A stretch of 64,000 nt of DNA from a virus (Duplodnaviria; Caudoviricetes), in IMG/VR virus record IMGVR_UViG_2841531823_000001, positions 32,356-96,355 of that record; one strand, written 5' to 3'. The position numbers and the translations under genes were made by a program. Positions 4,930 through 36,231 of the stretch are shown piece after piece. The notes under the pieces are model-generated. The model had not been told where the DNA came from. It was given only the letters and a program-made list of their open reading frames with translations, and did no database searches. Position 1 is the first letter of the stretch. Each line of letters opens with the position of its first letter.

Positions 4930-5412
4930 TCAGACGGGGGCGAGGAAGTTGGCTGCCTTGGCGGCCAGCCGCGCGCGGTCGCCGTGGTTCTCCGATGCGA
5001 AGGCCCCGAGCAGGCCGGCGATGATGGCGCGGGCCTCGGCGAGCTTCTCGGCATCGGCCTCGAAGTCGAGCGTCTGGATGAAGATGCCGGCAGGCTTGGA
5101 CAACTCGCCGCGCAACTCCTCATCGGAAATGGGCAGCTTCGGCGAGGCGCTGCACACGCGGTCCGGCCCGCACTTCGGCCCATCGAGTTCCACGCCCAGC
5201 AGCTGCGCCACGGCGCGCACGGCGGCGTCATCGCCTTTCGCCAGATCCTTGACGCGCTCTCTGTTCGGCACGAGGTCGGCGTCGTCCTCGATAGACCAGC
5301 CGCCGGGCATCATCTCGCGCATGACGATCCGGCGCAGCGGCGGCGGCGCGACTTTCGGCGCCGCCACGTTCGGGCTGACGATGCAGCCGGCAGGGGGAAA
5401 TTGGTTGCTCAC
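4930..5412 (-). CDS. Hypothetical protein
   Basis: GTGA overlap with the portal stop. Confidence 0.6.
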   Translation of the reverse strand: MSNQFPPAGCIVSPNVAAPKVAPPPLRRIVMREMMPGGWSIEDDADLVPNRERVKDLAKGDDAAVRAVAQLLGVELDGPKCGPDRVCSASPKLPISDEELRGELSKPAGIFIQTLDFEADAEKLAEARAIIAGLLGAFASENHGDRARLAAKAANFLAPV

Positions 5413-7625: not shown

Positions 7626-8067
7626 GATCGCGGATCTCCCGTTCGGCGGTTCGGCCGGTGGCGTTGTTTCGGAGCAGCATCTCGGCCACGGCCTCCTGCT
7701 CCGAGCGCGGCATGGGCGGGCAGGTGATGAGCTCGTGCAGGTTCTCCACCACCGCCGTCCGCACGCGATGCACGTCGGCGATGATGAGGCTGGAGAGCCC
7801 GAGGGCGTCGCAGAACAGCATGGCCCGCTTGGTGGCCTCCAGCTGGTCCCCGCGGGTCTCGTCCCAGATCCATGCCGTCGACATGGGCACGACGCAGGGG
7901 ATGATGCGGTCGTAGCCGAGCATGGTGTCGGCCGCTGGGGTGAGGACGAGGCAGGACTCGCCCGTCATGCGGTTCCACGTCGTCCAGACGGAGATCCGCC
8001 GATAGTCGCGCCGGCACCAGGAGAAGCGCAGGTCGTAGGCGGGCTTATAGTCCGGGGTGTCGCTCAT
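7618..8067 (-). CDS. Hypothetical protein between TerL and portal
   Basis: MSDTPDY start overlapping the TerL stop (ATGA). Confidence 0.7.
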   Translation of the reverse strand: MSDTPDYKPAYDLRFSWCRRDYRRISVWTTWNRMTGESCLVLTPAADTMLGYDRIIPCVVPMSTAWIWDETRGDQLEATKRAMLFCDALGLSSLIIADVHRVRTAVVENLHELITCPPMPRSEQEAVAEMLLRNNATGRTAEREIRDHV

Positions 8068-9647
8068 ATGGCGAGGCCTCCTGATGTGCGGCGGCGCGGC
8101 CGGCGGGGTGCGGAGATGAGGGCGGGATTGAAACCTTGCGCCCATTGGCGGAACGCGTCGGCGGCTTCGGAATGGCCTTCCAGCTTCTCGGGCTCGTGCG
8201 ACCAGACGCCGAGGCGCTGGTTCCATTTCTTGCGGTAGAGGCCGAGGTGATCGAGGCCGGCCTTGCAGGCTTCTGCGTCGAACCACGCCTGCCCGAACTT
8301 GGCCCGCGTCAGGTCAATGCCGTGCTGAATGGTCTCGACGCGCGGCACGATGTGCCATGTCCAGTCGGGTGCGAGCTCGGACAGCATGTCGAGCGGCGCG
8401 GCGATGCGGTCGGCCACCTGCCGCTCGTGTGTGGCGTCGTGGGGCAGGAACATCCCGCCGAAGATGTAGCCGGTCTCGCGCAGGCGCCGGACAAAGTGGC
8501 TGTAGCCCTCGCCCCAACCCTCCATGAAGCCGATGAACCGGTCCTGTGTCCCGACGTACTGGTGAAGCCAGATGGCCGTGCCGTCGCCTGCGCCGATGTC
8601 CCAGAACGTGTTGACGCGGACCTGCTCGATGTAGGGGACGCGGCTGATCCGCCCCTGGACACGCGCGCGGGCCAGCTGCGGGGCGTAGAAGGTGCCCTCG
8701 GTGGACTTGCGCCAGCACTCGGCCGAAGTGCTGGGCATCTCCTGCCACATCTTCTCGCCGTCGCCGGCGAAATCGTTCTCGCGCTTGGCGATGTACCAGG
8801 CGCGCTGACGCGGCGAGATCTTCGTGCCGGTCTCGGCCTCGACCTCGGCGAAGTACGCGGCATCGGCGGGCGTAATGAGGATGCCGGTGGGGTCGACCTG
8901 ATAGCCGGGATCGCGCCACCATGGGAAGAAGTGGAACTTCCACTCGGTGTCCGCGAGGAGCTTGCCGATCTGCGCCAGCGCCTCGGCCCGCGTGGCAATG
9001 TCATAGAAGGCGCCGCTCTGGCCCTCGGCCGTGGACTCGATGATCGCGATGCCGGTGAGCGGGACGGCCGGAAGCGAGCCGGTGACAATCTCCTTCGCCT
9101 TCTCTGGGAACTTGGCCGCGATCTTGCCCATCTCGGAGACGTGCAAACGGTGGATGGTGCCCGAGCGCATGGAGGTGGCGACGCGGATCGCCGAGTTGTT
9201 GTGCGCGAACCAGAGCTCCTTGGCGCTGTCCCGGGCGAGCGGCATCCGTTCGCGGATCGGCTCGGGAAGGTTCTGATAGGCGAACTTCACCTTGTCGCGG
9301 AAGATCGTGGCGGCGTCTTCGAGGCTGTGCGCGATGATGCCGACACGCTGATCGGGGACGAAGAGGGCGTGGTCCAGCCACATGATCGCGATGACGGTGG
9401 TGAACCCCAGCTGCCGCGCCTTCAGGATGACGTTGCGATAGTGGAGCGCGTCGATGAACTCGCGCTGCGCCTGGTTGGGGATGAAGGGCATGACGTGCCC
9501 CTCGGTGTCCTCGTCCCCCTTGACCATGATCTTGTAGAGCTGGCCGCTGAACAGGCGCCAGCGAGGGGACCGGAGGCACGCGGCCCAATCCTCGGCCGTC
9601 TGCGGCACGAATGCCGGATCCACCTCGACCGGTCCGATGGCGCTCAT
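8064..9647 (-). CDS. Terminase large subunit
   Basis: Walker A ILKARQLGFTT, LHVSE, IIESTAEG, nuclease FWDIG and HSEAADAFR. Confidence 0.93.
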   Translation of the reverse strand: MSAIGPVEVDPAFVPQTAEDWAACLRSPRWRLFSGQLYKIMVKGDEDTEGHVMPFIPNQAQREFIDALHYRNVILKARQLGFTTVIAIMWLDHALFVPDQRVGIIAHSLEDAATIFRDKVKFAYQNLPEPIRERMPLARDSAKELWFAHNNSAIRVATSMRSGTIHRLHVSEMGKIAAKFPEKAKEIVTGSLPAVPLTGIAIIESTAEGQSGAFYDIATRAEALAQIGKLLADTEWKFHFFPWWRDPGYQVDPTGILITPADAAYFAEVEAETGTKISPRQRAWYIAKRENDFAGDGEKMWQEMPSTSAECWRKSTEGTFYAPQLARARVQGRISRVPYIEQVRVNTFWDIGAGDGTAIWLHQYVGTQDRFIGFMEGWGEGYSHFVRRLRETGYIFGGMFLPHDATHERQVADRIAAPLDMLSELAPDWTWHIVPRVETIQHGIDLTRAKFGQAWFDAEACKAGLDHLGLYRKKWNQRLGVWSHEPEKLEGHSEAADAFRQWAQGFNPALISAPRRPRRRTSGGLAI

Positions 9648-10354
9648 TGGTCCGTCTGCCGCTTGATCGGCAGGGGCGTGCCCTGCGCGGCCGCGATGAG
9701 ATCGGCGAGGCCGTCAGTGACGCCGTGCTCGACCTTCTCTTTCAGGAGCCCCTTGTGCTTGGCGAGGACGTCGAACGCCTTCTCCTTCGAGGCCATGATG
9801 AACTCGATGCCGTTGCGCGTTTCCTTCACGCCCTCGAACAGGAGGGCCGCGGCGCCGGACAGGTCTCGGGTGTCTGCGAACCGGGTGTAGGGGATGCCGA
9901 GGCCAGCGCACTCAGGGCAGGCGGGGTTGGGCTTCTCGGTGAGCCTGTAGCCGAAGCCTCCTGCATCCGATGGCAAGGGCTTCCCGGCATCCTCGGCCTT
10001 GTCGCATTCCTCGCGCCACTCGCGCAGGGTCTTCCACTGGTACTGGTGATCGACGCCCCAGCAGTAGCGGCAGGCCCCGACGTGATGGGCGGTGAGCTCG
10101 CGCGGGTCGGCTTGCAGGATGGTGGCGGCGCGGGCGAGGAGGGCGTCTGCATCTAGCTCAAGCCGCTCGAACCGGGCGGCCTGGGCTTCGGCTATGGCCG
10201 CGGCGATCAGTGGTTTTCTGAGGTTTTCCGATCCGATGGCTTCGGCCGTCTTGGCGCTGTAACCGGCCCTGATGGCGGCTTGGGTGGCATTCAGGTCGAT
10301 CAGGTATTCCCTGACGAATGCCTCTTGCCGCGCTGTGAGGGACGTCCTGCCCAC
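9644..10354 (-). CDS. Terminase small subunit with Zn-finger insertion
   Basis: FVREYLIDLNATQAAIRAGYS motif; CRYC...CPEC. Confidence 0.88.
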   Translation of the reverse strand: MGRTSLTARQEAFVREYLIDLNATQAAIRAGYSAKTAEAIGSENLRKPLIAAAIAEAQAARFERLELDADALLARAATILQADPRELTAHHVGACRYCWGVDHQYQWKTLREWREECDKAEDAGKPLPSDAGGFGYRLTEKPNPACPECAGLGIPYTRFADTRDLSGAAALLFEGVKETRNGIEFIMASKEKAFDVLAKHKGLLKEKVEHGVTDGLADLIAAAQGTPLPIKRQTDQ

Positions 10355-21391: not shown

Positions 21392-22149
21392 TGCTGGACA
21401 ATGACGCGCCGCCGCCGGCAGGCCACAACAACCCGCCGCCGGATCTGCCCTACGATCCCGAGAAGCTCGCGACCTGCGAGGAGAAGGCGCGCGAGTTCGC
21501 CGATGCGGCGGGCGACTGGATCGCGCTCGGCAGGATCGAAACGACGGAGCAGGCCGAGAAGGCCACCGATTTCGTGGCGGGCGGCCGTGCCCTCCTGAAG
21601 AAGATCCAGGCGACCCAGAAGGCGGCCAAGGAGCCCTGGGCGGTCAAGGCCACGGCCGCTTTCGACGCATTCAAGCCGGCGATCGAGATGCTCACGCGCT
21701 CGAACGATACGGTTCTGCGGATCCTGAACGACTTCCTCGAGCGCGAGCGGGTGCGGAAGCTGAAGGAGAAGCGCGAAGCCGAGGAGAAAGCGCGCGCCGA
21801 GCAGGAAGCCGCCCGTAAGGCTGCGGCCGAGGCAGCTGCGCGCGGCGACATCGCGGGGCAGGTGGATGCCGAGAAGGCCGCGAAGGAAGCCGAGAAGGCC
21901 GCGAAGAAGGCCGCGAAGGCTCCCGAGGTCAAGGTCGGCTCCGCCACCGGCGCCGGGCGGACGATCAGCCAGCGCGAGGTCCGGTCCGCGAAGATCCTGA
22001 ACCAGAACCTCGTCTACATGCACTTCCGCGATCACCCCGATGTGGTCGCTGTCCTGCAGCGTCTCGCCGACGCCGAGTACCGCGCGAAGGGCGGCGAGAA
22101 CGCGAAGATCCCCGGAACCGAACTGGTCGTTGAGATGAGGGCCGCATGA
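21391..22149 (+). CDS. Coiled-coil recombination-region protein (Gam/Gp157-like)
   Basis: GHNNPP N-terminus, long coiled coil, C-terminal KIPGTE; directly upstream of RecT. Confidence 0.65.
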   Translation: MLDNDAPPPAGHNNPPPDLPYDPEKLATCEEKAREFADAAGDWIALGRIETTEQAEKATDFVAGGRALLKKIQATQKAAKEPWAVKATAAFDAFKPAIEMLTRSNDTVLRILNDFLERERVRKLKEKREAEEKARAEQEAARKAAAEAAARGDIAGQVDAEKAAKEAEKAAKKAAKAPEVKVGSATGAGRTISQREVRSAKILNQNLVYMHFRDHPDVVAVLQRLADAEYRAKGGENAKIPGTELVVEMRAA

Positions 22150-23483
22150 GCACCGAAAACCGCATTCCCGTCTCGCAACTTCCGCTGCGGCAGGTGCCCA
22201 GCGTCCGTGCCCTGCTGGTGAACGACAACGCCCGCGACCAGCTGTCCGCCGTTGCCGCCAAGCATATGAACCCTGAGCGAATGATGCGGGTGGTGGCGAA
22301 CGCCATCCGCACGACTCCGAAGCTGCAGGACTGTGAGCCGATGAGCTTCCTCGGCGCGCTCATGCAGTGCGCGGCGCTCGGGCTCGAGCCCAACACGATC
22401 CTTGGCCACGCCTACCTGATCCCATTCGAGAACAGCCGGAAGCGCATCGGCCCGGACGGAAAGCCGGTGAAGGGCGCCGACGGGCGGGACATCTGGGACA
22501 AGATCCCCGAGGTGCAGTTGATCGTCGGCTACAAGGGCCTGATCGACCTTGCGCGCCGGTCCGGGCACATCACGAGCATCGCGGCGAACATCCACTATTC
22601 CGACGATGAGCTCTGGGAATACGAGGAGGGCACTGAGGCGACCCTGCGGCACCGGCCCGGCCCGCAGGAGGGCAAGAAGCTGCACGCCTATGCCATCGCG
22701 AAATTCAAGGACGGCGGCCACGCCTATGTGGTGCTGCCTTGGAAGGTCGTGATGAGGGTCCGGGACGGCTCGCAGAATTGGCAGAGCGCGGTACGGAACG
22801 GCAAGACCAACAAGAACCCGTGGTTCACCCACGAGGACGCCATGGCGATGAAGAGCGCCGTGCGGGCGCTGTCCAAGTACCTGCCGCTCTCCGTCGAGTT
22901 CATGGACGCCATGTCGGTCGACGAGCAGCGGGCTGACTATCGCGCCTTTGCCATGAACCCCGATGCCGGACTGACGATCGAGGGCGAGGCCGAGGAGGGC
23001 CACGATCCCGAGACCGGCGAGGTGCGGGACGAGCAGCCCAAGCAGGTCGAGAACATGCGGACGCTGAACGACGCGACGCAGGAGCGGCAGCGCGAGCCTG
23101 CCCCGGCGGCGCGCCAGCGCCGGCAGGAGAAGGCGCGCGAAGATGCGACGCCCTACGCGCAGAACCCGGCGGCCGAGGATCTCATCGCCAAGGAAGCGGC
23201 GCGCGTCGCCGCGGCCCGCGCGCAGGCGCAGGCCCAAGCGGAGGCTCCGCAGCGCAACGAGGGGCCGAGCCACGAGGCCGCGCTGCGCGGGCTGGCTGAT
23301 CGCATCAGCGACGACCTGCTCGACTGCGCCAGCGAGAACTCCGTGGATCAGGTGCTCGAGCTCTGGGCCGAGCACCTGGGCCAGATCGAGCGCGAGGCGC
23401 CCACGCTCCACGCCGAGATTCAGGAAGCCATCGCGCAGACGCGCGCTCGCGTGGGCGGCGGCCAAGCCTCGATGCGGATCTGA
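22146..23483 (+). CDS. recT: RecT family single-strand annealing protein
   Basis: PERMMRV..PKLQDC..LGLEPN..LGHAYLIPF..IVGYKGLIDLARRSG..KYLPLSVE. Confidence 0.92.
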   Translation: MSTENRIPVSQLPLRQVPSVRALLVNDNARDQLSAVAAKHMNPERMMRVVANAIRTTPKLQDCEPMSFLGALMQCAALGLEPNTILGHAYLIPFENSRKRIGPDGKPVKGADGRDIWDKIPEVQLIVGYKGLIDLARRSGHITSIAANIHYSDDELWEYEEGTEATLRHRPGPQEGKKLHAYAIAKFKDGGHAYVVLPWKVVMRVRDGSQNWQSAVRNGKTNKNPWFTHEDAMAMKSAVRALSKYLPLSVEFMDAMSVDEQRADYRAFAMNPDAGLTIEGEAEEGHDPETGEVRDEQPKQVENMRTLNDATQERQREPAPAARQRRQEKAREDATPYAQNPAAEDLIAKEAARVAAARAQAQAQAEAPQRNEGPSHEAALRGLADRISDDLLDCASENSVDQVLELWAEHLGQIEREAPTLHAEIQEAIAQTRARVGGGQASMRI

Positions 23484-25256: not shown

Positions 25257-25522
25257 CCGACGTAATCGAAGCTGCCTGGGCGGAAACCGGGCCGGATGCC
25301 GATGGCGATTGCCATTTCTGGAGCGTGGGAAAGCAGTTCTACAACCCGGGTTCCGTGGACCGCCCGACCATCACGCGCATCACGGTGCAAGAGGATCTGC
25401 CCGGCCTGCACTGCAACCTGCGGCGCGTCTGTGTCTGGGTCGGGGAGGCTATGGTCGCGGAAGCGCCCGTCGCCACGATCAAGGCCATTGGATACCCGGT
25501 TCCGAAAGGGGCGGTGTCGTGA
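25253..25522 (+). CDS. Hypothetical protein
   Basis: GTGA coupling. Confidence 0.55.
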   Translation: MTDVIEAAWAETGPDADGDCHFWSVGKQFYNPGSVDRPTITRITVQEDLPGLHCNLRRVCVWVGEAMVAEAPVATIKAIGYPVPKGAVS

Positions 25523-25752
25523 AACCGTTTTCCGAGATTCTGGCCGCCATCGTCGGCCGCCCGCCGGCGGCGCCGGCCAAGAGCTACGAGGACGGCATCC
25601 GCGCCGCCGTCGACTGGCTGGAAGGCACCGCCGAATGGGACTGCGGCCACGAGCCCCGCTACTGCCGCTGCCACGAGGAGAAAGCTCTGCTGCGCGATAC
25701 CGCGGAGCAGATGGCACTCGAACTCTTGCCCAAGAAGAAGGAGACGAACTGA
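25519..25752 (+). CDS. Hypothetical protein
   Basis: GTGA coupling. Confidence 0.55.
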   Translation: MKPFSEILAAIVGRPPAAPAKSYEDGIRAAVDWLEGTAEWDCGHEPRYCRCHEEKALLRDTAEQMALELLPKKKETN

Positions 25753-26027
25753 TGGCTGGACCTGGCCACAACAGCGGCGACCCGCTGGATTCCTACAACG
25801 TGACCGCGGACGAGCTTCGCCAGTTCATCGAGCGGTACGAGCAGCTGGAAGCCGAGAAGAAGGACGTTCAGGAGCAGCAGAAGGAACTGATGGCCGAGGC
25901 CAAAGGCCGCGGCTACGACACGAAGGTGATGAAGAAGCTGGTGGCGCTTCGCAAGCGCAAGCCCGACGACATCGCCGAGGAGGAGACGATCCTCGAGCTC
26001 TACAAGTCCGCTCTGGGGATGGCCTGA
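25752..26027 (+). CDS. GapR/DUF2312 family nucleoid-associated protein
   Basis: VTADELRQFIERYEQLEAEKKD..EAKGRGYDTKV..LELYKSALGM. Confidence 0.92.
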   Translation: MAGPGHNSGDPLDSYNVTADELRQFIERYEQLEAEKKDVQEQQKELMAEAKGRGYDTKVMKKLVALRKRKPDDIAEEETILELYKSALGMA

Positions 26028-26855: not shown

Positions 26856-28009
26856 CCGAGATCGACATGAGCACTGGTGCGGTGGAGCGGCTGGCGGAGA
26901 CCCTGCTTTTTCGCGGCCATCATCATCAGGAGAAAATCAACCACCTCCTCCGGCGGCTCCACGTCGAGCGGATCACGGCGTCTAAGACGCTTCGCGCCCT
27001 CGCGGCCGAGCGCGACCGGCTGAGGGAGGCGGTGGTCGAGATGGAACGCTCACCGGAGTATTGGCACGGCCGCGCTCTCAAGGCCGAAGCCTCGCTCACC
27101 GAGGCCCGCGCCGAGACGGGCGCGCTGATCGAGCGGGCGGCGGCGCTGTGCGACGAGGGTCGCCAAGTCTCGCACGGCATGACCAGGATGAAAACGCGCG
27201 AGGAGTGCCGTGACGCCATCCTCGCCCTCTCCCCCGACGCGACCGCCGCCATCGCCGAGGTGCGCCGGGCCGAGCGGGAACGGTGCGCCGAGCTGATCGA
27301 CAAGCGCCGGGAAGCCTATCAGGCCGAGCACGGCATCTACGATCTGGAGACCGGCGCCACGGAATATCCTGGCAACGGCGACGAGTGGGTGCAGGAATGG
27401 CACGAGCTTGCCGAGGCCATCCGCACCCCTATCGAGAAGGAGCCAGACGGTCTGCGCGGCCAGGTGCTTGCAATCGTCGCTAGGGTGAACGCCGACTATG
27501 CCGCCGGCCGGATCGACCCTCGTGAGGTCGCGTGGATCAACTCGGAGGACCATATTGGGGACGCCCCCAAAATGGTTCCGCAGCCCGCCGCGGCCGATGG
27601 GTGGGCCGCCTCTCTCGCGGCCGGCGTGGCTGAGCAGATGGCACAACAGGATGGCGCATGGGTCTCCTGCTCCGGCTGCTATGCGACCGATGAGGGCTAT
27701 CCGACCGCTGCCACGGATCCGGTGTTCGGGTGCGCCCTCGGCGGCGGGTGCATGGAATGCGGCGGACTCGGGGCGGTCTGGGATGCCCCGGACTACCGCG
27801 ATGTGGTCGCTGAGGCCGCCGCGGAGCCGTCGCCGCCCACCGTGGCCGAGGCCGCGCGGGTGCTGCTGGCCAGCGGGCGGCTGAATGACCTGTCTGGCTG
27901 GGACGGGCAACCGTTCCAGTCGGCCATGCAACACGGCCCGACGACTGCAGCGCATTGGCGCGACCGGCTCCGCGCGCTCGCCGGGGAGGGGCGGGCGCAG
28001 GGCTACTAA
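26852..28009 (+). CDS. Mosaic early protein (Ead/Ea22-like) with Cys cluster
   Basis: Coiled-coil segments plus CSGC...CMEC; converges on the integrase. Confidence 0.6.
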   Translation: MTEIDMSTGAVERLAETLLFRGHHHQEKINHLLRRLHVERITASKTLRALAAERDRLREAVVEMERSPEYWHGRALKAEASLTEARAETGALIERAAALCDEGRQVSHGMTRMKTREECRDAILALSPDATAAIAEVRRAERERCAELIDKRREAYQAEHGIYDLETGATEYPGNGDEWVQEWHELAEAIRTPIEKEPDGLRGQVLAIVARVNADYAAGRIDPREVAWINSEDHIGDAPKMVPQPAAADGWAASLAAGVAEQMAQQDGAWVSCSGCYATDEGYPTAATDPVFGCALGGGCMECGGLGAVWDAPDYRDVVAEAAAEPSPPTVAEAARVLLASGRLNDLSGWDGQPFQSAMQHGPTTAAHWRDRLRALAGEGRAQGY

Positions 28010-29298
28010 ATCGCGATCGGGGCGAGCAGTCGGTGCAGGTGCTCGAGCGTCGCCCCGGCCCCGTATTCCTCTCGCGTGAGAGCGTGTCCCATCAGGTCGC
28101 GCCTCACGCGCTCATCGATCCCTGCGGCGAGGCATCGATCTTCGAACGAATGCCGGAAGCCATAGAGCGTGTGCTTGGGCGACTCGGCGAGCCCGTTCTC
28201 GCGCAGGAACTTGTTGACCGTGGCCGAGAGGGATGGATTGTCGTGATAGCGCGGGAAGCCTTCCGGGTGCAGCTTCGCCGCCTCAAGGCTCACGCCGGTC
28301 AGCGGGATCTTCCGCCGCGCCCGCGGGCTCTTGAGTGTCCGAGCCTCGCCCTCGATCGAGATGTGCGGGATCTCCGCGTCAAGCACGATCCGGGCTGCGG
28401 TGAGCGCCTGAATCTCGGACGGCCGGGCGCCCGTGTTCAACATGATGAGCATGATGGCGCGAGCCTCGGCGTTGAGGCCAGCCAGCGCGCCGGGGGCGAG
28501 CAGCTTTGCCCTGATCCAGTCGTCAGACCAAGGCAGGCGCTTCCCCTTTTCGCCTTCGGGCAGGGCATAGCCGGTCAGAGGCGGATTGAGCGGGAGCCGC
28601 TTCTTCTTGATGACCTCGCGCAGCGTCGAGCCGAGGTGCGTCAGATCCTTGTTGGCCGAGTTCGGCGTCAGCCCCTCGGTTTCCAAGCGATCCTCCCACC
28701 ACGCCATGAAGTCGAGCATGTCGTCGGGGGCCAGATCCTCGAGCGCCTTGTCGCCCACCACCTCGATGAAGTTTCGGAAGGCCTTGACCCGCGGGTTGCG
28801 CCAACGGCGGATCTGGTCCGCGCTCTTGCCGCGCGTCTTGGACTTCTCCGCGACCTCCCAATAAATCTCGAGCGCGCGGCTCATGGTGATCTTCGGGGGC
28901 TGGGCCCCGCCGAGAACAGCTGCGGCCTCGATCGGATCGGGCTCGGCCGGCGCGGCGCCGGCGCGCTCATAGGCTGCGAGCCGCGCTTCGAGCTCGGCCC
29001 GCGGCATTTGCGCCACCTCGCGCGCGTGCAGGAACCTGAACCCGCGCTTGGCCGCCAGTTCGCGCGCCGCCTCGAACATCTTCTCCGCGTCCCGGGTGTC
29101 CCCCGCGAGCTTGGCTTCCCATGCCTCGATCATGTCTTGCCAGACCTTCGGTGCCTTCTGCCTCGCGACGTCCATGCTGTCCGTGTGCAGGGAGAGGTTC
29201 ACGAAGGTGCGGCCGTCGATGTGCTTGTACCGCTTCGGCACCCGGCGGCGGATGCGCCAGGTTCCTTCTCGCTTGTTGAGGCCGGTCAGGCGGCTCAT
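28006..29298 (-). CDS. int: Tyrosine integrase of prophage 1
   Basis: TGARPSEI, YGFRHSFED, LMGHA, Y; N-terminal RRRVPKRY..LSLHT. Confidence 0.93.
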   Translation of the reverse strand: MSRLTGLNKREGTWRIRRRVPKRYKHIDGRTFVNLSLHTDSMDVARQKAPKVWQDMIEAWEAKLAGDTRDAEKMFEAARELAAKRGFRFLHAREVAQMPRAELEARLAAYERAGAAPAEPDPIEAAAVLGGAQPPKITMSRALEIYWEVAEKSKTRGKSADQIRRWRNPRVKAFRNFIEVVGDKALEDLAPDDMLDFMAWWEDRLETEGLTPNSANKDLTHLGSTLREVIKKKRLPLNPPLTGYALPEGEKGKRLPWSDDWIRAKLLAPGALAGLNAEARAIMLIMLNTGARPSEIQALTAARIVLDAEIPHISIEGEARTLKSPRARRKIPLTGVSLEAAKLHPEGFPRYHDNPSLSATVNKFLRENGLAESPKHTLYGFRHSFEDRCLAAGIDERVRRDLMGHALTREEYGAGATLEHLHRLLAPIAI

Positions 29299-29310
29299 GT
29301 GGACCCTCCA

Positions 29311-29457
29311 TGTGACCACCTGAATCTGCCGATGATCGGCCCGAGAGACAAGCCCCATCGTGCCCCCGAATGTGATCCGAGATGTGTCCCGCTTTGGTCA
29401 CCACCAATTTCCGACAGCGCTAAGTTTCCCTTGCTTTGCTGGGCAATATTGGTCACA
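29311..29457. repeat. Putative arm-type integrase sites, TGTGWYC-like repeats
   Basis: tgtgacca 29311, tgtgatcc 29371, tgtgtccc 29383; inverted tggtcac(a) near 29395 and 29450. Confidence 0.55.
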
Positions 29458-29471
29458 AAGGGGGGTGAAAC

Positions 29472-29561
29472 TGGCGGAGACGAAGGGATTCGAACCCTCG
29501 AGACGGTTTCCCGCCTGCACCCTTAGCAGGGGTGTGCCTTCGACCACTCGGCCACGTCTCC
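29472..29561 (-). tRNA. tRNA-Ser(GCT), prophage 1 attachment site
   Basis: GGAGACGTGGCCGAGTGG...CTGCTAA anticodon loop, long variable arm, GGTTCGAATCC, CCA end. Confidence 0.97.
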
Positions 29562-29568
29562 GCTGACC

Positions 29569-29597
29569 GATATATTTGCCAAACCCACGAAGAACAA
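29569..29597 (-). promoter_or_regulatory. tRNA promoter
   Basis: TTGTTC-N17-TATATC just upstream of the tRNA. Confidence 0.6.
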
Positions 29598-29656
29598 GCG
29601 CTTTCTTCCCCGCACCCCGGAGGGCGCGCAAGTTCATGTTTTCCCGTGTTTTCACA

Positions 29657-29671
29657 GAACAGATGCCGAAC
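29657..29671. promoter_or_regulatory. Candidate LexA box
   Basis: GAACagatgccGAAC. Confidence 0.5.
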
Positions 29672-29748
29672 TGCACGCGATTTTCGTGCAAAATCCGTGC
29701 AGCTCGTTCACGCCATATTCAGCCACGAGTGCAGGGGCTCTGGGAGCG

Positions 29749-29919
29749 ATGGCTGAGGATCTGGCGAAGCAGCTGCGCGACATTGCGGTCAATGGTGACA
29801 GTCTCTTCTCACGGCGCAACTTCCGCACGCTTGACGGATGCGGCGGGAGCGTTGGACTTCGGGCCGATCCACAAGGTTCAGTGCGCCGCCGCGCGATCCC
29901 CGCATTCCGGTCTAAGTAA
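29749..29919 (+). CDS. Small host ORF between the two att sites
   Basis: GGGAG RBS, MAEDLAKQLRDIAVNG..., 56 aa. Confidence 0.4.
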   Translation: MAEDLAKQLRDIAVNGDSLFSRRNFRTLDGCGGSVGLRADPQGSVRRRAIPAFRSK

Positions 29920-29929
29920 TTAATCTCTA

Positions 29930-29946
29930 TGGTGACCCCGGCAGGA
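29930..29946 (-). repeat. att core: tRNA 3'-end fragment, probably tRNA-Arg
   Basis: Minus-strand TCCTGCCGGGGTCACCA with no rest of a tRNA; followed by an IHF consensus AATCAATGACTTA at 30010-30022. Confidence 0.75.
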
Positions 29947-30039
29947 CCTCTGCAATCGCTGATTTTGCTTAGGAATTTCGGTAAATCGGGCTCCTCCGGC
30001 CCTCTAGAAAATCAATGACTTAAAGGGCCGGCTGTAAAC

Positions 30040-31145
30040 GCCGAGGCTGGCCGCGGAGGCGCTGCGTCTTCGGCCGCTCTCTGTCCGCGCCTGCGCGCCG
30101 TGCGCCGGCCATTCACATCGACCATGTCCACTGGACTGTCGAGCGGATCGAAGGGACGGGGGAGGAGAAGACCCGCACCGGCCAGCTGCACAGTGGAACA
30201 AAACGCAACAATGCCCATCCGGAGGGAGCATTCCGCGAAAGCCACACCTCGGCATCGACCTGCACCACCCGAATAGGGGTATCGGCGTCTCTCCAGCGCG
30301 ATGCTATGGTGAGCCCCTTTTCCGCGGTTCATCTGCCCTGGATCGCGGAAAGCGGGGCCGCAGGATGCTGGCGGGAGTGGAGATCCTGCGGCCCCACGCT
30401 CATGGCCACTCCTGCCAGTTTGTCGCATCCTCTCAAGATGAGGTAATGATAAGGTTCTCGCAGCCACCGAGGCCGCCCCTAACGACCTCGACTGGTCAGG
30501 CCGCGGGCTCTCACCACCGTTAGCCCGCGGCTGCCTTAGCTCTACCGGTGCGGCAACCTGTCTCACACCCGAATTCAGTAATCTACTTCATCTTGATGGT
30601 GCGCCTTCGGTAAGGCCGCGGGGATGTGACTACCGGCTGAGACCCTGCGGCCGCTTCTCGCTCCACACACAAGCCGTCCAACCGTGGCTAAGCACCTTCT
30701 TTTGAGAGTGCTTCAGGAACCTTAGGATGGCCGGCCATCCAATAAGGATGCTGGGGGAAGTTGAGGTGGAGGATGCCGGATGTGGTTGCTAGCGTGCGGC
30801 ACGCCGCCGAGTGACGCCCCTGCGCGCTCGCTGGTGAGGCCGCGGACTAGCGCCAGGAATGTCCGCGGCCGCAGCCCGCTGCGTCAAAATATCGCAGCAA
30901 TTATGGGCAGAGGCGGGCGACCCGTCAAAAAAACGTAATAGGTTCTTCTTCAGGTGCGATATCTCAAGTGTCAGCCGCCGACAGCTGTCCCAAGCGATTC
31001 GTGTGGTTAGGCCGCGGTTTTGCCGTGAAAGGTTCGACCGCGGCCGTCAATCTCCGTCAAGAGTTTGCCCGTTCGTACGGAAGTTCAACTCCATCCGCAG
31101 GCACGGCCGACACTGTTACAGCAGTGGCAGCATCGCGGCCGCTTC
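30040..31145 (+). repeat. Array of related GGCCGCGG-loop-CCGCGGCC stem-loops, candidate ncRNA array
   Basis: Stems at 30049-30075, 30319-30351, 30354-30395, 30499-30532, 30614-30652, 30838-30870, 31010-31045; shared GGTNA 5' flank on four; G-U pairs favour the + strand. Confidence 0.7.
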
Positions 31146-31588
31146 CATCTCGACGAATGTCGAAGGTAGGTCCCTCGCGCTGAGGCGTGAAGGTCTGGAT
31201 CCAGCCCATTGCTGCCCCTCATATCCCGCGCAGCATGATGCGAGGCGCCGTCGAGCGGGGCGGGGAGCGGTCATTCGCTACATCTAACATGTACGGCGCC
31301 AGTGCGTGGAAAGGCACCACCGCCGTAGCACACGGCGTGTTCTGGCGCTCGCGGATGGGCTACGGGGCGCGGATCGACGGCGACCGCTACTCATCACCTT
31401 GCCGAAAAAGATGACCGGCGAAGAAGTCCTGATCGACTGACAGCACCCACCCGCCACGACACACTCCGTCATGCAATCAAGCGCCTCCCTCGAAGCGCTT
31501 TTTGGCTCTTCGCGAACTTGCTGCTCAGCACGAATGACACTAGTGTGACAGAGATCTCAGCAACTTTCTTCGCTCACTCAGGTGCCCA

Positions 31589-32635
31589 ATGGATGCAACG
31601 AAAATATCTTCCGAGCTAAAACAGCAGCGAAGAACAGTTGGGTTTGATACCTACGACATTACCGCGAAGCAACTGCTAGATATGGTTGCTGAAGGGCAGA
31701 TAAAGGTGGCGCCCGACTACCAGCGGCATTTCGTTTGGAAGTCGGATAGGGAGTCGGCGTTGATTGAGTCGGTGTTTCTAGGAATTCCCGTTCCCAGTCT
31801 ATTTATGGCGACAAATGAAGACTCAAGTTGGGAGTGCATCGACGGGCTGCAGAGGATCACTACCCTTGTAAACTTCGTGAGGCCGCAATTTCGTTCAGGG
31901 GTCAAGGACATTTCAACGCACGAACTGAAGATTGATGGCCTCGAAAAGGTTCCAAGCCTAAATGGTACGAAATTCTCTGATCTTCCTGAGACGCTAAAGC
32001 TCAACTTCCTAACGAGACCCGTGAGGATAACGGTTCTCAATGATCTGAGTGATTACCAAGTCAGATTCGACCTATTTGAGAGGCTGAACACCGGAGGCAT
32101 AATACTGCATCAGCAGGAAATCCGAAATTGCGTGTTTCAGGGGGAGTTTAACGAATTCATCAAATCGTGCGCCGCCGATGAGCGCTTAGAAAAAGTGTTC
32201 AAAAAATCGAATCGCGAAGGCCGCGGCAACATGGAGGAGGTGGTGCTCAAGTTCTTCGCTTATTTCGAGTGCAGGAACGACTTCAAACACTCCGTAAAAG
32301 AATTTCTGAACGTCTATATGGAAGACAAGACGAAGGCGTTCAAGAACAAGAAGACACTGTCTGAACTGTTCGACAAGACAATGGAGGTTTTGTCGAGTGC
32401 GCTCCCGGATGGCGTAGTTCGGAGCGAACGAAAGAACACGACCCCGCTTCTATTGTTTGAAGCCGTATCTGTTGGGGTCGCTGATGTAATCAGTGCGGGG
32501 AATCAAGTGAATAAAGATGCCCTTCGAGTCGTTCTTAACGACCAAGAGCTCAAGAAGGCGACCTCGGTCGGCACGAATAGTAACCCCAAATTGTTGCGGA
32601 GAATCGAAATCGTTAGAGGGGCCGTTTCTGGATGA
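31589..32635 (+). CDS. DUF262 (ParB/GmrS-like) protein
   Basis: PDYQRHFVW, LIESVFLGIPVP, IDGLQRITTL, FERLNTGG; lower GC than the flanks. Confidence 0.9.
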   Translation: MDATKISSELKQQRRTVGFDTYDITAKQLLDMVAEGQIKVAPDYQRHFVWKSDRESALIESVFLGIPVPSLFMATNEDSSWECIDGLQRITTLVNFVRPQFRSGVKDISTHELKIDGLEKVPSLNGTKFSDLPETLKLNFLTRPVRITVLNDLSDYQVRFDLFERLNTGGIILHQQEIRNCVFQGEFNEFIKSCAADERLEKVFKKSNREGRGNMEEVVLKFFAYFECRNDFKHSVKEFLNVYMEDKTKAFKNKKTLSELFDKTMEVLSSALPDGVVRSERKNTTPLLLFEAVSVGVADVISAGNQVNKDALRVVLNDQELKKATSVGTNSNPKLLRRIEIVRGAVSG

Positions 32636-33300
32636 GCTTTGCCGACGCCCAGCTAGAGGTGCGCGGCAGATTCATGGAAGCCCTTCAAGTAATAAATCGG
32701 CTGGACCCCGGCGCGCCACCCAACCTCATCCCCTCCACGGACCCGGACAAGGCGTTACGTGGCCTACTACTCGTAGCAATATATTCTGCGATGGAACGGG
32801 GAGTAAACGCTTACGTTGAAGAGGCATTAGCGGTGGCCACGTCGCATGCCTCACTAGTCAAGCATTGCATCCCGGAGGTGCAGGCAATTTTTCACTACCC
32901 GCGAATACAATCGCTTCGCGACTGCTCTGATGATAATTCACTCAGTAAGTCGATTGAGCTATTCTCTATGCTCGCGCGGGATGTTGAGTTCAGCGTCGCA
33001 AACAACCCATTTTCCATGCGCCTGCAGAATGTTGACGGTTCAACGATGGAGCAGTGCTGCCAGTTTCTGGGTGTGCCCAACTTCAGCATCGGCGTAATGG
33101 AGAAGGGCCGTTTGAATAATCTTCGTGAGCGACGAAATGCGGTGTCTCACGGCCGCGAGTCTTCGGTACAGGTCGGTGGGAGGTTCTCCTTCGGCGAAAT
33201 AAGAACCATGCACTCAATAGCGGATACAGAAGTTGAAAAATTTGGTTCGGCTTTGAGGGATTTTTTTGAGCAGAAAGGTTATGAGCTCAGAAGTGCGTAG
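32632..33300 (+). CDS. HEPN-like nuclease (MAE_28990/RiboL-PSP-HEPN type)
   Basis: RxxxxH motif RRNAVSHG, LLLVAIYSAME; ATGA-coupled to DUF262. Confidence 0.8.
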   Translation: MSFADAQLEVRGRFMEALQVINRLDPGAPPNLIPSTDPDKALRGLLLVAIYSAMERGVNAYVEEALAVATSHASLVKHCIPEVQAIFHYPRIQSLRDCSDDNSLSKSIELFSMLARDVEFSVANNPFSMRLQNVDGSTMEQCCQFLGVPNFSIGVMEKGRLNNLRERRNAVSHGRESSVQVGGRFSFGEIRTMHSIADTEVEKFGSALRDFFEQKGYELRSA

Positions 33301-33669: not shown

Positions 33670-34176
33670 TCAGAGCTTGGCCGCCTGAGCGAGCCTGGAC
33701 CGGACCAGCGCATCGAGCGTGCTCGCCGGCGGGGCCAGCTGTTTCAGCGCATCCGGCACCGAATCCCGGACATAGCTCGCGACGAACTCAGTCGCCGCAT
33801 CGGGGGCAAGCTTCCGCGCCACCGCCACCCGTGCAGCCGTCATGATGGCCGAGTGCAGCGCCTCGCGGTGCCGGGCCTCGATCTGGATCCCGGTCCAGCG
33901 CTGGAAGCGAAGGGTCGCGAACCCGATCAGCGCGGTCAGTGCCACGCCTGCGAGATCGAGGAGGCTCGGCGCTAGGGCGGTCAGCAGTCCGCTGCCGGTC
34001 GAGGCGGCGGCAGGGAGGGCGAGCGTGGCGAGGATGATGGCCGAGATCACCGAAACGGTCCCCCGGGCGATGGCCGCGACCAGCGGCCAGCCGACGAACA
34101 AGATGAAGGCCAGCGCGCAGAGGGCGAGCATGAGCACGAGGGGCGTCGGGGGCGCGAGGGTGAAGATCGGGGACAT
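33670..34176 (-). CDS. Lysis-module membrane protein
   Basis: Several hydrophobic helices; IEARHREALHSAI; follows the endolysin. Confidence 0.75.
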   Translation of the reverse strand: MSPIFTLAPPTPLVLMLALCALAFILFVGWPLVAAIARGTVSVISAIILATLALPAAASTGSGLLTALAPSLLDLAGVALTALIGFATLRFQRWTGIQIEARHREALHSAIMTAARVAVARKLAPDAATEFVASYVRDSVPDALKQLAPPASTLDALVRSRLAQAAKL

Positions 34177-34188
34177 GGGCTCTCTCCT

Positions 34189-34986
34189 TCAGAGGCGGGC
34201 GAACTGGAAATGCATCCAGTCGCGGTTGCAGGCGCGGCCGAGGCTGGTGGCGCCGGCGGCTTCGACGATGGTCCAGAAGGGCTCGTAGGCGGGCGCAGCG
34301 AAGCTCGCCCGGTCCCGGCCCCAGCGGAGCGGGTTGCGCTCGGGGTCGAGGTCGACCGCGATCCCCCAGGCGTGCATGGAGAGGTTGGAGCCGCCGCGCA
34401 TGGGCCGGTGATTGAAGCAGCCGCCGAAGAGGTTCAGCCGCAGCCGCTCGAACTCGGCCGCGCCGTAGTGGGCGACCGCCTCGCGGAAGATCCGCGTCAT
34501 CGGCGCCGCCACCAGCTTGTGGCACCGGAAGCTCGTGATGCTCGTGTTGAGATCCCAGGCAAGCCGGAACGGGAGCGGCAGCTCGACGATCCCGGCCGTG
34601 CAATCTGGGCCGCCCGCCACGCCGTAGAAGGTCGCCACCGACTCCTGTCGCGGATAGGCGCCCTGGGCATCGGCCACGGCATGTCCCGAAAGGGGCAGCC
34701 GCTCGACGGCGGCGCGCACCGGCCCGGAGGCCCAGGCGGTCAGCGCCTCGCGCGTGTTCGGCCCGAGGAGCCCGTCGATCCGGCCGGGTGCGTGCCCGAG
34801 CCGCGCCAGTACCGCCTGGCCGGCCGCGATTCGCTGCCGGCGGGAAGGCCAGGTGCGCCAGGGCACCGCCTCTCCCTCGAGCGCGGCGAGTGCGGCCGCC
34901 TGGGTCAGCGGCCCCGCGTCGCCGTCGATGGCGCCGCGGTAGAGCCCCGCGGCCGCAAGCAGCCGCTGGATGTCGGATGTCGTCAC
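34189..34986 (-). CDS. Endolysin: PG-binding domains plus M15 peptidase
   Basis: IDGDAGPLT / IDGLLGPNT; SMHAWGIAVD; DWMHFQ. Confidence 0.9.
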   Translation of the reverse strand: MTTSDIQRLLAAAGLYRGAIDGDAGPLTQAAALAALEGEAVPWRTWPSRRQRIAAGQAVLARLGHAPGRIDGLLGPNTREALTAWASGPVRAAVERLPLSGHAVADAQGAYPRQESVATFYGVAGGPDCTAGIVELPLPFRLAWDLNTSITSFRCHKLVAAPMTRIFREAVAHYGAAEFERLRLNLFGGCFNHRPMRGGSNLSMHAWGIAVDLDPERNPLRWGRDRASFAAPAYEPFWTIVEAAGATSLGRACNRDWMHFQFARL

Positions 34987-35052
34987 GTCTTTCTCCATAT
35001 GCAAAAGCCCCGCTCGAGGACGGGGCACGGGTGGTCGGACTGGTGGGATTTT

Positions 35053-35859
35053 TCAGAGGAGGGTCGCGACCCGCTCGCGGTTCGAGACGAGGAGCTCCTG
35101 CGCCTCGGTGCCGCCCGCCGCGGAGACCGAGTAGCTCAGCCGCACCGGCTCGAGGTGGAACCGGCCGAAGAGCGCCCGGATCTCCGGCGTGTCATTGATC
35201 GACAGGAGGAAGGCACCCTTGAGGCCGCCGAGGATCTCGGCGATCCGCGCGAACTGCGCCCGGTCGAAGAGGCCTTTCCCGTAGTCGTTCTCGCCGCCGA
35301 AGTAGGGCGGGTCGAGATAGAAGAGCGTCTCAGCCGCGTCGTAACGCGGGATCAGGTCGGCCCAGTCGAGGCTCTCGAAGACCACGCCATCGAGCCGCTC
35401 GTGGGCAGCGTCGAGCATCGGCTCGAGGCGCGCGAGCGAGAAGCGGGGCCCGTGCCCGGCCGAGACGCCGAAGACCCCGTCGAGCTTGCCGCCGAAGCTG
35501 AGGCGCTGGAGGTAGAGGAACCGCGCGGCCCGCTCGAGGTCGGTGAGCGTGGCGGGGTCGGTGAGCCGCAGCCGATCGAACTCGCGCCGGCTGCAGATCT
35601 GGAAGCGCATGATCTCGAGGAGCTGGGGATAGTGCCGCTGCAGGATCCGGAAGAGGTTGATGATCTCGCCGTTGCGGTCGTTCATCACCTCGAGACGCGG
35701 CCGGAACCTACGGCGGAGGAAGATCCCGCCCATGCCGACGAAGGGCTCGACATAGGCGCGGTGCGGGATGGCCTCGATCCGCTCGAGGATGAGCGGGTGG
35801 AGACGTTTCTTGCCGCCGAGCCACGGGGCCACCGGGGCGGCGGGAGCTACTTGTTTCAT
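35053..35859 (-). CDS. D12-class (Dam-like) adenine methyltransferase
   Basis: PWLGGKKRL, YVEPFVGMGG, FYLDPPY. Confidence 0.92.
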   Translation of the reverse strand: MKQVAPAAPVAPWLGGKKRLHPLILERIEAIPHRAYVEPFVGMGGIFLRRRFRPRLEVMNDRNGEIINLFRILQRHYPQLLEIMRFQICSRREFDRLRLTDPATLTDLERAARFLYLQRLSFGGKLDGVFGVSAGHGPRFSLARLEPMLDAAHERLDGVVFESLDWADLIPRYDAAETLFYLDPPYFGGENDYGKGLFDRAQFARIAEILGGLKGAFLLSINDTPEIRALFGRFHLEPVRLSYSVSAAGGTEAQELLVSNRERVATLL

Positions 35860-35954
35860 AAGGTGATTCTGCCTCACAAGGCGCCTGCCCTCGCGAGGGG
35901 TGGCAGGCAGTCTGAAAGGCGACGGACAGGCTGGCGCGGTCGTGGGTGAGACTA

Positions 35955-36005
35955 TGGCCGCGTGGTTCGGGCTGTTCGCGCAGCCCGGCCCCTGCCTGAG
36001 GGGCA
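35955..36005 (-). ncRNA. Two-hairpin leader upstream of the D12 methylase, possible D12-methyl RNA motif
   Basis: GCCCCT-CAGGC-AGGGGC followed by CGGGCTG-CGCGAA-CAGCCCG-AACCACGCGG. Confidence 0.45.
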
Positions 36006-36231
36006 TTACGGGCGCCCCGAGGAAGGGGCGCGCCGGATCTCGATTGTTGAGGCTGCAGACCCCAAACTGGACATGCTACGGCAGAGCCCTGGCGTCTGCA
36101 GCTCGACATCCAGCGTCACATCCCCATGCCACCAAAGGCCAAAGCCTCGTGGCCCGCATTGGTGCTGCTTGATGAGCGCATTAGGGAGTGCCACAAGGGT
36201 AATATACGCCTGCAGTTGATAAGGAACCCAT

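Follow-up and report, generated by a model that had tools for sequence, protein, structure and literature searches.

A tandem array of two-hairpin units on Cereibacter mobile DNA: a possible small structured RNA family inherited independently of the adjacent DUF262-HEPN pair

The CcsR1-4 or 'cuckoo' RNAs of Rhodobacter (Cereibacter) sphaeroides are made of tandem homologous units of ~90 nucleotides (nt), each folding into two hairpins and set at irregular spacing, and their hallmarks are CCUCCUCCC in both hairpin loops and a location in the 3' region of a DUF1127 gene. Here we characterize a non-coding array of similar layout in the IMG/VR virus record IMGVR_UViG_2841531823_000001 (Duplodnaviria; Caudoviricetes; 96,355 bp), within a 64,000-nt stretch (record positions 32,356 to 96,355) that we call the window and whose numbering is used throughout. 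The array lies on the + strand, upstream of a DUF262-HEPN gene pair. It shares with the CcsR RNAs the genus, the tandem ~90-nt two-hairpin units and the varying neighborhoods, and co-transcription followed by processing would be plausible for it as well. We tentatively favor, at just short of an even chance, the explanation that the array represents an undescribed family of small structured RNAs borne by mobile elements, in which each unit would be transcribed from its own extended -10-type promoter. If transcribed, this would be a structurally well-supported family carried by prophages and by a plasmid of Cereibacter sphaeroides, which has long served as a laboratory model for bacterial RNA biology.

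The array comprises five tandem two-hairpin units, all on the + strand, spanning 30302-31055 with a module size of ~85-95 nt (Table 1). Four GGTNAGGCCGCGG...CCGCGGCY hairpins, here called P2 of units A to D, lie where an earlier note on this DNA had placed them. Their start-to-start distances of 115, 224 and 172 nt confirm the irregular spacing it had reported and, together with a repeat identity of 86-93% over 14 nt, its exclusion of CRISPR. The pattern GGCCGCGG-N8-30-CCGCGGC matches 9 times in the window against 0.36 expected (both strands taken, palindromes counted twice), a number reached by 0 of 100 shuffles; the GGTNA-prefixed pattern has 3 forward and 0 reverse matches in the full record, with a reversed-pattern control of 0. 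The longer 5' flank described for three of the units is also present and folds as a second hairpin, P1 (GCCRCCGA...TCG..YGGT), in which GCCRCCGA and TCG-N-YGGT form the stem and most copies have CCCCTAA as the loop. Within a unit, a single unpaired A separates P1 from the downstream P2, a GC-rich GGCCGCRGG...CCYGCGGCC hairpin with a varying loop; the motif CCACCGT is common to the P2 loops of four units, some loops being related by descent. The earlier description is extended by a fifth unit, U0, formed by the two hairpins listed for it in Table 1. Both are inverted repeats (I2, I3) conserved in the homologues G001 and G154, the latter scoring 24.4 bits against R1, a covariance model built on five units. 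Unit B is degenerate, with 22 nt of P1 gone relative to G001 and G154; the G-U variant claimed for one hairpin is indeed found there (30614), and the unit reaches only 20.8 bits against R1, its homologues 27.2 and 24.2 bits. No open reading frame (ORF) of the array has a Pfam match, in agreement with the claim that it holds no credible coding sequence, and amino-acid identity to a homologue 77% identical in nucleotides is 50-71% in all frames, below the nucleotide identity, as expected of non-coding DNA.

The hairpins are real and non-random. Folded as + strand RNA, units A, C and D are more stable than shuffled sequences (z-scores -2.8, -1.9 and -4.0; 0 of 200 shuffles as stable as unit D), and unit B folds no better than shuffles (z 0.0). 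When 11 units from 6 loci were aligned to the model, 93.9% of 214 cells were standard pairs as against 81.5% in shuffles, changes on both sides occurred in 11 of 20 pairs, and 0 of 500 shuffles reached the observed value on any of five measures; slid registers pair at 30-50%. The stem covariation that had been read from the window alone thus extends to both helices, P1 and P2, across 11 units. In the P2 hairpin of unit B, for example, pairs run C-G / U-G / U-A and G-U / G-U / A-U over the three homologues. One G-U pair is kept in 10 of the 11 units, and the alignment holds 23 G-U cells versus 7 A-C cells, all of the latter at a doubtful outermost pair. This excess marks the + strand as the folded strand, as had been supposed, and with the covariation it supports the array as a repeated, structured, strand-specific element. 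It also bears on the idea of functionless, decaying duplications of a GC-rich palindrome. Unit B has lost its 22 nt, unit D is without a promoter-like box and the array sits inside a pseudogene, but compensatory changes and a conserved G-U pair persist across species and replicons at 70-77% overall identity, and the same architecture is kept in three different proviruses and a plasmid, which makes decay very unlikely.

Table 1. Positions of the array units and of neighboring features in the window.
Feature	Position	Strand	Details and evidence
Unit U0	30302-30395	+	TGCTATGGT box 30302-30310; hairpin 30314-30356; hairpin GGGGCCGCAGGAT...ATCCTGCGGCCCC 30354-30395
Unit A	30447-30542	+	TGATAAGGT box 30447-30455; P1 ~30462-30498, loop CCCCTAAC; P2 30499-30532; R1 92 bits, E 2e-17
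Unit B	30596-30662	+	degenerate P1; P2 30614-30652 with G-U pair
Unit C	30787-30880	+	TGCTAGCGT box 30787-30795; P1; P2 30838-30870; R1 71.7 bits
Unit D	30969-31055	+	P1; P2 31010-31045; R1 76.9 bits; no TGnTAnnnT box at the usual position
Predicted long-range helix	arms 30433-30445 and 30584-30596	+	encloses unit A; inverted repeat I6, 92% complementary
Upstream region and 5' fragment of degraded flaR-like P-loop kinase gene	29913-30186	+	left border of insert
Last codons, stop codon and downstream region of kinase pseudogene	31169-31229	+	right border of insert
R2 dispersed palindromic repeat, ~75 nt	31195-31285	+	9-copy alignment
DUF262 (GmrSD_N; PADLOC NsnA / PD-T4-2_A) and HEPN_RiboL-PSP genes	31589-33300	+	Pfam, PADLOC
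tRNA-Ser(GCU)	29472-29561	-	ARAGORN; Rfam tRNA 58 bits; context only
DUF6538/Phage_integrase gene	28006-29358	-	on 3' side of tRNA-Ser; Pfam

Outside the window, units were found at few loci, all of them prophage or plasmid cargo regions of one genus. Cereibacter johrii JA192 matches the window at 98% identity over 29472-31270, where homology ends. Units U0-A-B (window 30212-30658) align over 476 nt at 77% identity with an IMG/VR provirus that is C. sphaeroides 2.4.1 chromosome II 734,357-734,824, the copy (units on the reverse strand of 734,352-734,824) lying immediately downstream of an integrase gene in the same orientation. The third U0-A-B copy, at ~70% identity, is in provirus G154, where it separates the tape-measure gene from the following tail gene and runs antisense to the two. 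Single units occur after an Xre-RES pair on a 105-kb plasmid (39,260-39,348) of strain 2.4.1, in genome G004 6 nt past the stop of an opposite-strand reverse-transcriptase gene of a diversity-generating retroelement (DGR) and 2.5 kb from an integrase, and in genome G008 among ORFs without Pfam matches. The unit loci share no neighboring protein. With two loci in strain 2.4.1 itself, the question of transcription is open to existing strains and probably to existing RNA-seq data. Model searches found units in 4 of 6 Cereibacter genomes, with 1-4 per genome, and in 4 of 151 relatives; 150 additional genomes from the same taxonomic family yielded none. Four genomes have 5-6 P2-type hairpins each, and genome G006 has 0 (reversed-pattern control 0-2). 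As a side observation, genome G007 (C1:856434-856467) and orthologous sites in G003, G004 and G008 carry a chromosomal hairpin, GGCCGCGGGCGCAATGGGGAGGTCGCCCGCGGCC, conserved in four species, with the same stem as P2 and weak model scores of ~24 bits.

Comparisons with collections of known elements returned little. The array had no blastn match in PLSDB plasmids or INPHARED phages. In Rfam 15, only tRNA-Ser passed E<=10 in 29000-32500 and nothing did in 30040-31145, and no unit at the five homologous loci had a match at E<=1, consistent with the statement of the earlier note that this is not a recognized family. Among the at least 120 loci listed for a degenerate unit pattern in genome contigs, 119 were chance matches in GC-rich genomes and the real one was C. 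johrii JA192; in viral contigs, 12 of the 13 loci given by the first unit pattern were chance matches, and a scan with two conserved blocks of 19-22 nt returned the known homologue and 2 chance loci. No description of these repeats was found in open full text, and papers that are not open, such as the original 2009 small-RNA survey, could list a transcript; the supplements of PMC6238624, PMC8034643 and PMC3688512 hold nothing relevant at coordinates near the 2.4.1 loci, other supplements lying outside this search.

How might the units work as small-RNA genes? We suggest that each module encodes a small structured RNA transcribed from the + strand. The motif TGnTAnnnT, which resembles an extended -10 promoter, ends exactly 6 nt before the AGCC/CGCC at the start of P1 in 8 of the 13 listed units. 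An extended -10 box can work without a -35 element and directs a start 6-8 nt downstream, so transcription would begin at the base of P1, possibly at its first nucleotide. The motif is at chance level in the window as a whole (13 on both strands, 12.07 expected), and three + strand copies fall within the 1-kb array, each immediately upstream of a unit. In the RNA, P1 would stack two helices below a conserved CCCCUAA(C) loop, and a lone unpaired A would link it to P2, a 10-11-bp GC-rich hairpin whose loop would be free to vary. Because P2 is not followed by a U-tract terminator, transcription that starts at upstream units probably continues through the later ones as well, and the products are probably cut back to the pieces that hairpins protect, as happens to transcripts of other tandem small-RNA clusters. 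Cereibacter prophages and a plasmid would carry the modules as autonomous non-coding 'moron' cargo. Besides the structure and the strand bias, this explanation draws on the upkeep of the U0-A-B block at 77% and ~70% identity in two proviruses, with invariant blocks of 15-24 nt and compensatory stem changes, and on the low-copy distribution at cargo sites. As for the mode of action, our guess is a trans-acting RNA that would use the conserved P1 loop for base pairing or protein binding, with P2 serving perhaps as a stabilizing, protective 3' hairpin. No target emerged for the proposal that the variable loop is a guide: in the provirus record and four Cereibacter genomes, none of loops B, C and D matches a second site when 2-3 mismatches are allowed, phage genomes being outside this search for short loop matches.

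Several observations weigh against the small-RNA explanation. Tested for small-RNA traits, the units show the box in 9 of 13 cases and a supported + strand structure, yet the box is missing from unit D and from the three B units, and the consensus scan found no full sigma-70 promoter on the + strand of 29900-31700, the one promoter-like site being on the - strand (30928-30900). Intrinsic terminators (GC hairpin plus U-tract) number 0 on either strand of the same interval, so P2 itself is not a terminator match. The box of unit A can pair with a conserved GCGGCAACCUGUC block in a composite element, so that it may serve as one strand of a helix and not as a promoter. The P1 loop has GTTAGGG as its complement, and this heptamer is found nowhere else in the window. 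The covariation alignment was fitted to the model and several of its units are close kin, and as G-T wobble also occurs in folded single-stranded DNA, the strand bias is no proof of RNA. Short contigs at depth ~3 from two metatranscriptome libraries cover 30032-30219, 30354-30397 (U0 P2) and 30930-31080 (unit D and its upstream region), and another metatranscriptome contig joins 30494-30564 to 30732-30865 via 64 other letters, a variant A-C junction. DNA- and RNA-library contigs together cover parts of the array at depth 2-7, the uncovered parts and small word shares being uninformative. Such contigs carry neither strand, ends nor level and DNA carry-over is possible, so they give no more than a weak hint in favor of transcription. 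Metagenome contigs from one RNA library and one DNA run join 30564/30732 and 30879/30968 in another unit order or spacing, indicating that unit content and order vary among strains.

Another explanation acts in cis, in which the units would be RNA or promoter cassettes that drive, insulate or stabilize neighboring cargo transcripts, for example by shielding an upstream mRNA from 3' exonucleases or by feeding transcription into a swapped defense cassette, rather than free-standing regulators. At three loci (the window, C. johrii, the 2.4.1 chromosome II provirus) the array does point at variable cargo with the same endolysin region beyond it, no terminator separates it from DUF262, and a gene of like orientation (integrase, RES, kinase fragment) stands immediately upstream of several units. 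On the other hand, units in G154, in G004 and on the plasmid face a convergent gene and would give antisense transcripts rather than mRNA, the 340-nt region upstream of DUF262 is part of the cassette itself, which in G006 occurs without a unit, and a mere stabilizer would not need a conserved P1 loop sequence. We regard a cis role as unlikely.

The U0-A-B homologues hold invariant blocks of 15-24 nt between the hairpins in addition to compensatory stem changes, a pattern that might reflect one large structured RNA of ~330-410 nt with nested long-range helices and several domains, in which C and D would be extra domains or duplicates. RNAalifold on the three homologues predicts the nested helices GUCGCAC/GGUGCGCC, UCAAGAUGAG/CUUCAUCUUGA and GAUAAGGUUCUCGCA/UGCGGCAACCUGUC; nearly all long-range pairs are kept, and 12 of 108 predicted pairs show double changes. 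In the helix enclosing unit A (alignment columns 145-154 and 307-316), a single pair has a double change (AU/GU/GC) and 4 of 10 pairs are broken in G154, which with three sequences is weak support. A large RNA is improbable, since only three independent sequences are available and the long-range helices are almost without covariation, since single units stand alone at three loci with the box and without the partner blocks, and since scans of viral contigs with two further invariant blocks gave 4 loci, all chance matches, and no new homologue. Given similarly little weight is the possibility that the array anchors, as a conserved non-coding block, a hotspot of prophage cargo: a multi-domain U0-A-B RNA or promoter block at one edge of a defense-exchange slot would control cargo expression or form a new large prophage RNA.

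The earlier note had placed the array upstream of the DUF262-HEPN pair as a possible partner, and this tie is not borne out, the two being distributed independently in both directions. The array occurs at 98% identity in C. johrii without the pair, followed there by CTD9, MC5 (ABC-3C) and an LmuB-like ABC ATPase (Lamassu-like), and the pair occurs in G006, at 95.5% over 1,556 nt, in a genome where no unit was found. The slot between array and endolysin thus holds DUF262 and HEPN here, the Lamassu-like system in C. johrii (C80:2904-5911, L184) and unrelated ORFs (DUF982, others) in the 2.4.1 chromosome II provirus, with variable cargo followed by a common endolysin region in all three. This swapping identifies a cargo-exchange slot in which array and defense pair are neighbors by accident, and DUF262-HEPN is exchangeable cargo, not part of the repeat family. 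The pair is low in GC (0.48-0.53). That the array could be the RNA partner of the pair, as antitoxin, guide or sponge, draws on adjacency and shared orientation in the window; against it stand the independent distributions just described, the kinase 3' remnant and R2 repeat that separate the two, and the presence of units in five other gene contexts (RES toxin, DGR reverse transcriptase, tape-measure gene and integrase among the neighbors). PADLOC moreover files the DUF262 protein under two-protein systems (NsnA, 7e-69; PD-T4-2_A, 5e-52). We consider such a partnership extremely improbable. The HEPN adjacency is an accident of a cargo-swapping hotspot beside tRNA-Ser and does not point to a new RNA-guided or RNA-antitoxin defense system.

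Both borders of the array consist of a degraded P-loop kinase gene, flaR-like by reading of its GQPGSGKST motif. The intact reference is a 200-amino-acid kinase (L152:1093-1695, - strand), and the gene is intact in four Cereibacter genomes. On the left, the coding remnant 30104-30186 translates to PAIHIDHVHWTVERIEGTGEEKTRTGQ and matches residues 42-68 of the intact protein (tblastn E 4e-7), kinase positions 328-409 corresponding to 30104-30185 by blastn; on the right, kinase positions 786-846 correspond to 31169-31229 at 77%, with matches in L151, L152 and L154. Since both kinase ends flank the array, positions 410-785 have been replaced by ~980 bp of array. On the small-RNA explanation, this would be a block of modules that took the place of the middle of a kinase pseudogene beside tRNA-Ser. 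Of the interval 30040-31145 that had been assigned to the array, the array part therefore stands, and 30040-30186 belongs to the pseudogene, as does a supposed stem near 30045. The remnant is 82% identical to a kinase pseudogene on C. sphaeroides 2.4.1 chromosome I, which lies beside the equivalent tRNA-Ser and is without the array. A suspected extension of kinase homology into the array was not significant, and tblastn with the G001 integrase gave no sign of a suspected integrase remnant at 29576-29923.

Further decayed flaR-like kinase copies exist in C. johrii C134 (L144) and on 2.4.1 chromosome I (L154). L144 keeps residues 41-63 and 164-190 with ~14 nt between them, its deletion starting a few codons from the array start in the window, and is preceded by a P1-like hairpin, CCACCGAGC...GCTCGGGTGG, and then TAACCCC. 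A stretch noted at window 29886-29945 and L018 (~5215-5260, - strand) resembles the G001 integrase gene at its 3' end (TCTAAGT...ATGGTG) and the GC hairpin that follows, and is accompanied by a degenerate unit-like motif, GCCGCCG..TCCCC..CGG, that the models miss. The R2 repeat (core GCCCCTCGTG...CACGAGGGGC) is distinct from the array units and has copies in several Cereibacter genomes (L146, L148, L155, L158). Homology to G006 begins at 31246, and this junction of the DUF262-HEPN cassette inside R2 suggests that R2 may be a recombination hot spot. Prophage genes on the right side of the cargo (33670-36006, - strand) encode an endolysin with PG_binding_1 and Peptidase_M15_4 (34189-35028) as well as a D12 adenine methyltransferase (35053-36006). 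A second element, on the left of tRNA-Ser, carries the DUF6538-type integrase, RecT (22146-23483) and a GapR-like protein (25296-26027), and the gene content on the two sides indicates that the 96-kb 'provirus' record probably joins two elements flanking tRNA-Ser.

The DGR beside the single unit in G004 (L183, G004:C13, 6778-9709) has a reverse transcriptase with an IGNLTSQ motif (6778-7875, - strand), an asparagine-rich template-like stretch just upstream of it with a near-threshold Rfam RT-14 match (43.9 vs 48.1 bits), and a target gene of FGE-sulfatase fold (8582-9709, - strand). A link between units and DGRs was rejected: with this reverse transcriptase as query, none was found in the window record, G001, G003 or G007.

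Conserved palindromes at the junctions of mobile cargo also recall DNA elements, and the hairpins might act as folded strands or duplex sites for a recombinase, relaxase or replication protein (attC-like, single-strand origins, transfer-related). They are orientation-specific, with conserved stem sequence and free loops, they lie at cargo-block junctions with an integrase adjacent at 2 loci, their order varies in metagenome contigs, and folded DNA tolerates G-T wobble. However, no inverted or direct terminal repeats are seen at the insert borders, and units also stand in the middle of a tail-gene cluster and, on the plasmid, by a toxin-antitoxin pair, with no common neighbor protein. Like REP/BIME and rhizobial RIME-type mosaics, the array is extragenic and combines GC-rich palindromes and a conserved short 5' motif in a modular mosaic; unlike them, its units all point in one direction and are restricted to mobile DNA. 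REP/BIME elements with RAYT occur in tens to hundreds of copies per genome, as against only 1-4 units and 5-6 P2-type hairpins here, and PF01797, the Y1/HUH transposase of REP/RAYT and IS200/IS605 PATE, is found in 0 of 6 Cereibacter genomes, with 6 of 14 reference control genomes positive. Integron attC sites share the conserved stem, variable terminal loop, strand-specific folding and cargo-junction placement, but attC is one bulged hairpin and the array units are two adjacent ones. The integron integrase model TIGR02249 (IntI) is above cut-off in 0 of 6 genomes (best 81.8 bits vs 265). Of the four units, D alone has GTTRRRY (GGTTAGGC), with GTC, GTA or GTG in the others, and the position that corresponds to its invariant T varies (GGTNAGG); no RYYYAAC/GTTRRRY pair is present, and no ORF with a family match lies in the 115-224-nt gaps. 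A role as DNA sites is accordingly quite doubtful.

Among RNA systems, type III toxin-antitoxin loci (ToxI-like) offer a repeated RNA-like array upstream of a nuclease-type gene, as in the window, but the array repeats are not short, regular or identical and are inherited independently of the HEPN gene, and an antitoxin RNA of that gene was rejected for this lack of co-inheritance. A passage of PMC8266604 mentions the prophage small RNA DicF and the anti-small RNAs AgvB and AsxR of E. coli. The units resemble these as non-coding prophage 'moron' cargo, often multi-copy and near prophage ends or tail genes, and differ from them in having no sequence or structural relation. The CcsR/cuckoo RNAs are likewise rejected as an identity for the array: none of the 11 aligned units has CCUCCUCCC in its loops, P1 carrying CCCCUAA and P2 a variable loop, and Pfam finds no DUF1127 near the units in the window and at four other loci. 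Unlike CcsR, the array units are confined to prophage and plasmid cargo, have their own promoter-like box and lack an Rfam match. If transcribed, they would constitute a second multi-copy two-hairpin RNA family, borne by mobile elements, in the genus of the CcsR/cuckoo RNAs.

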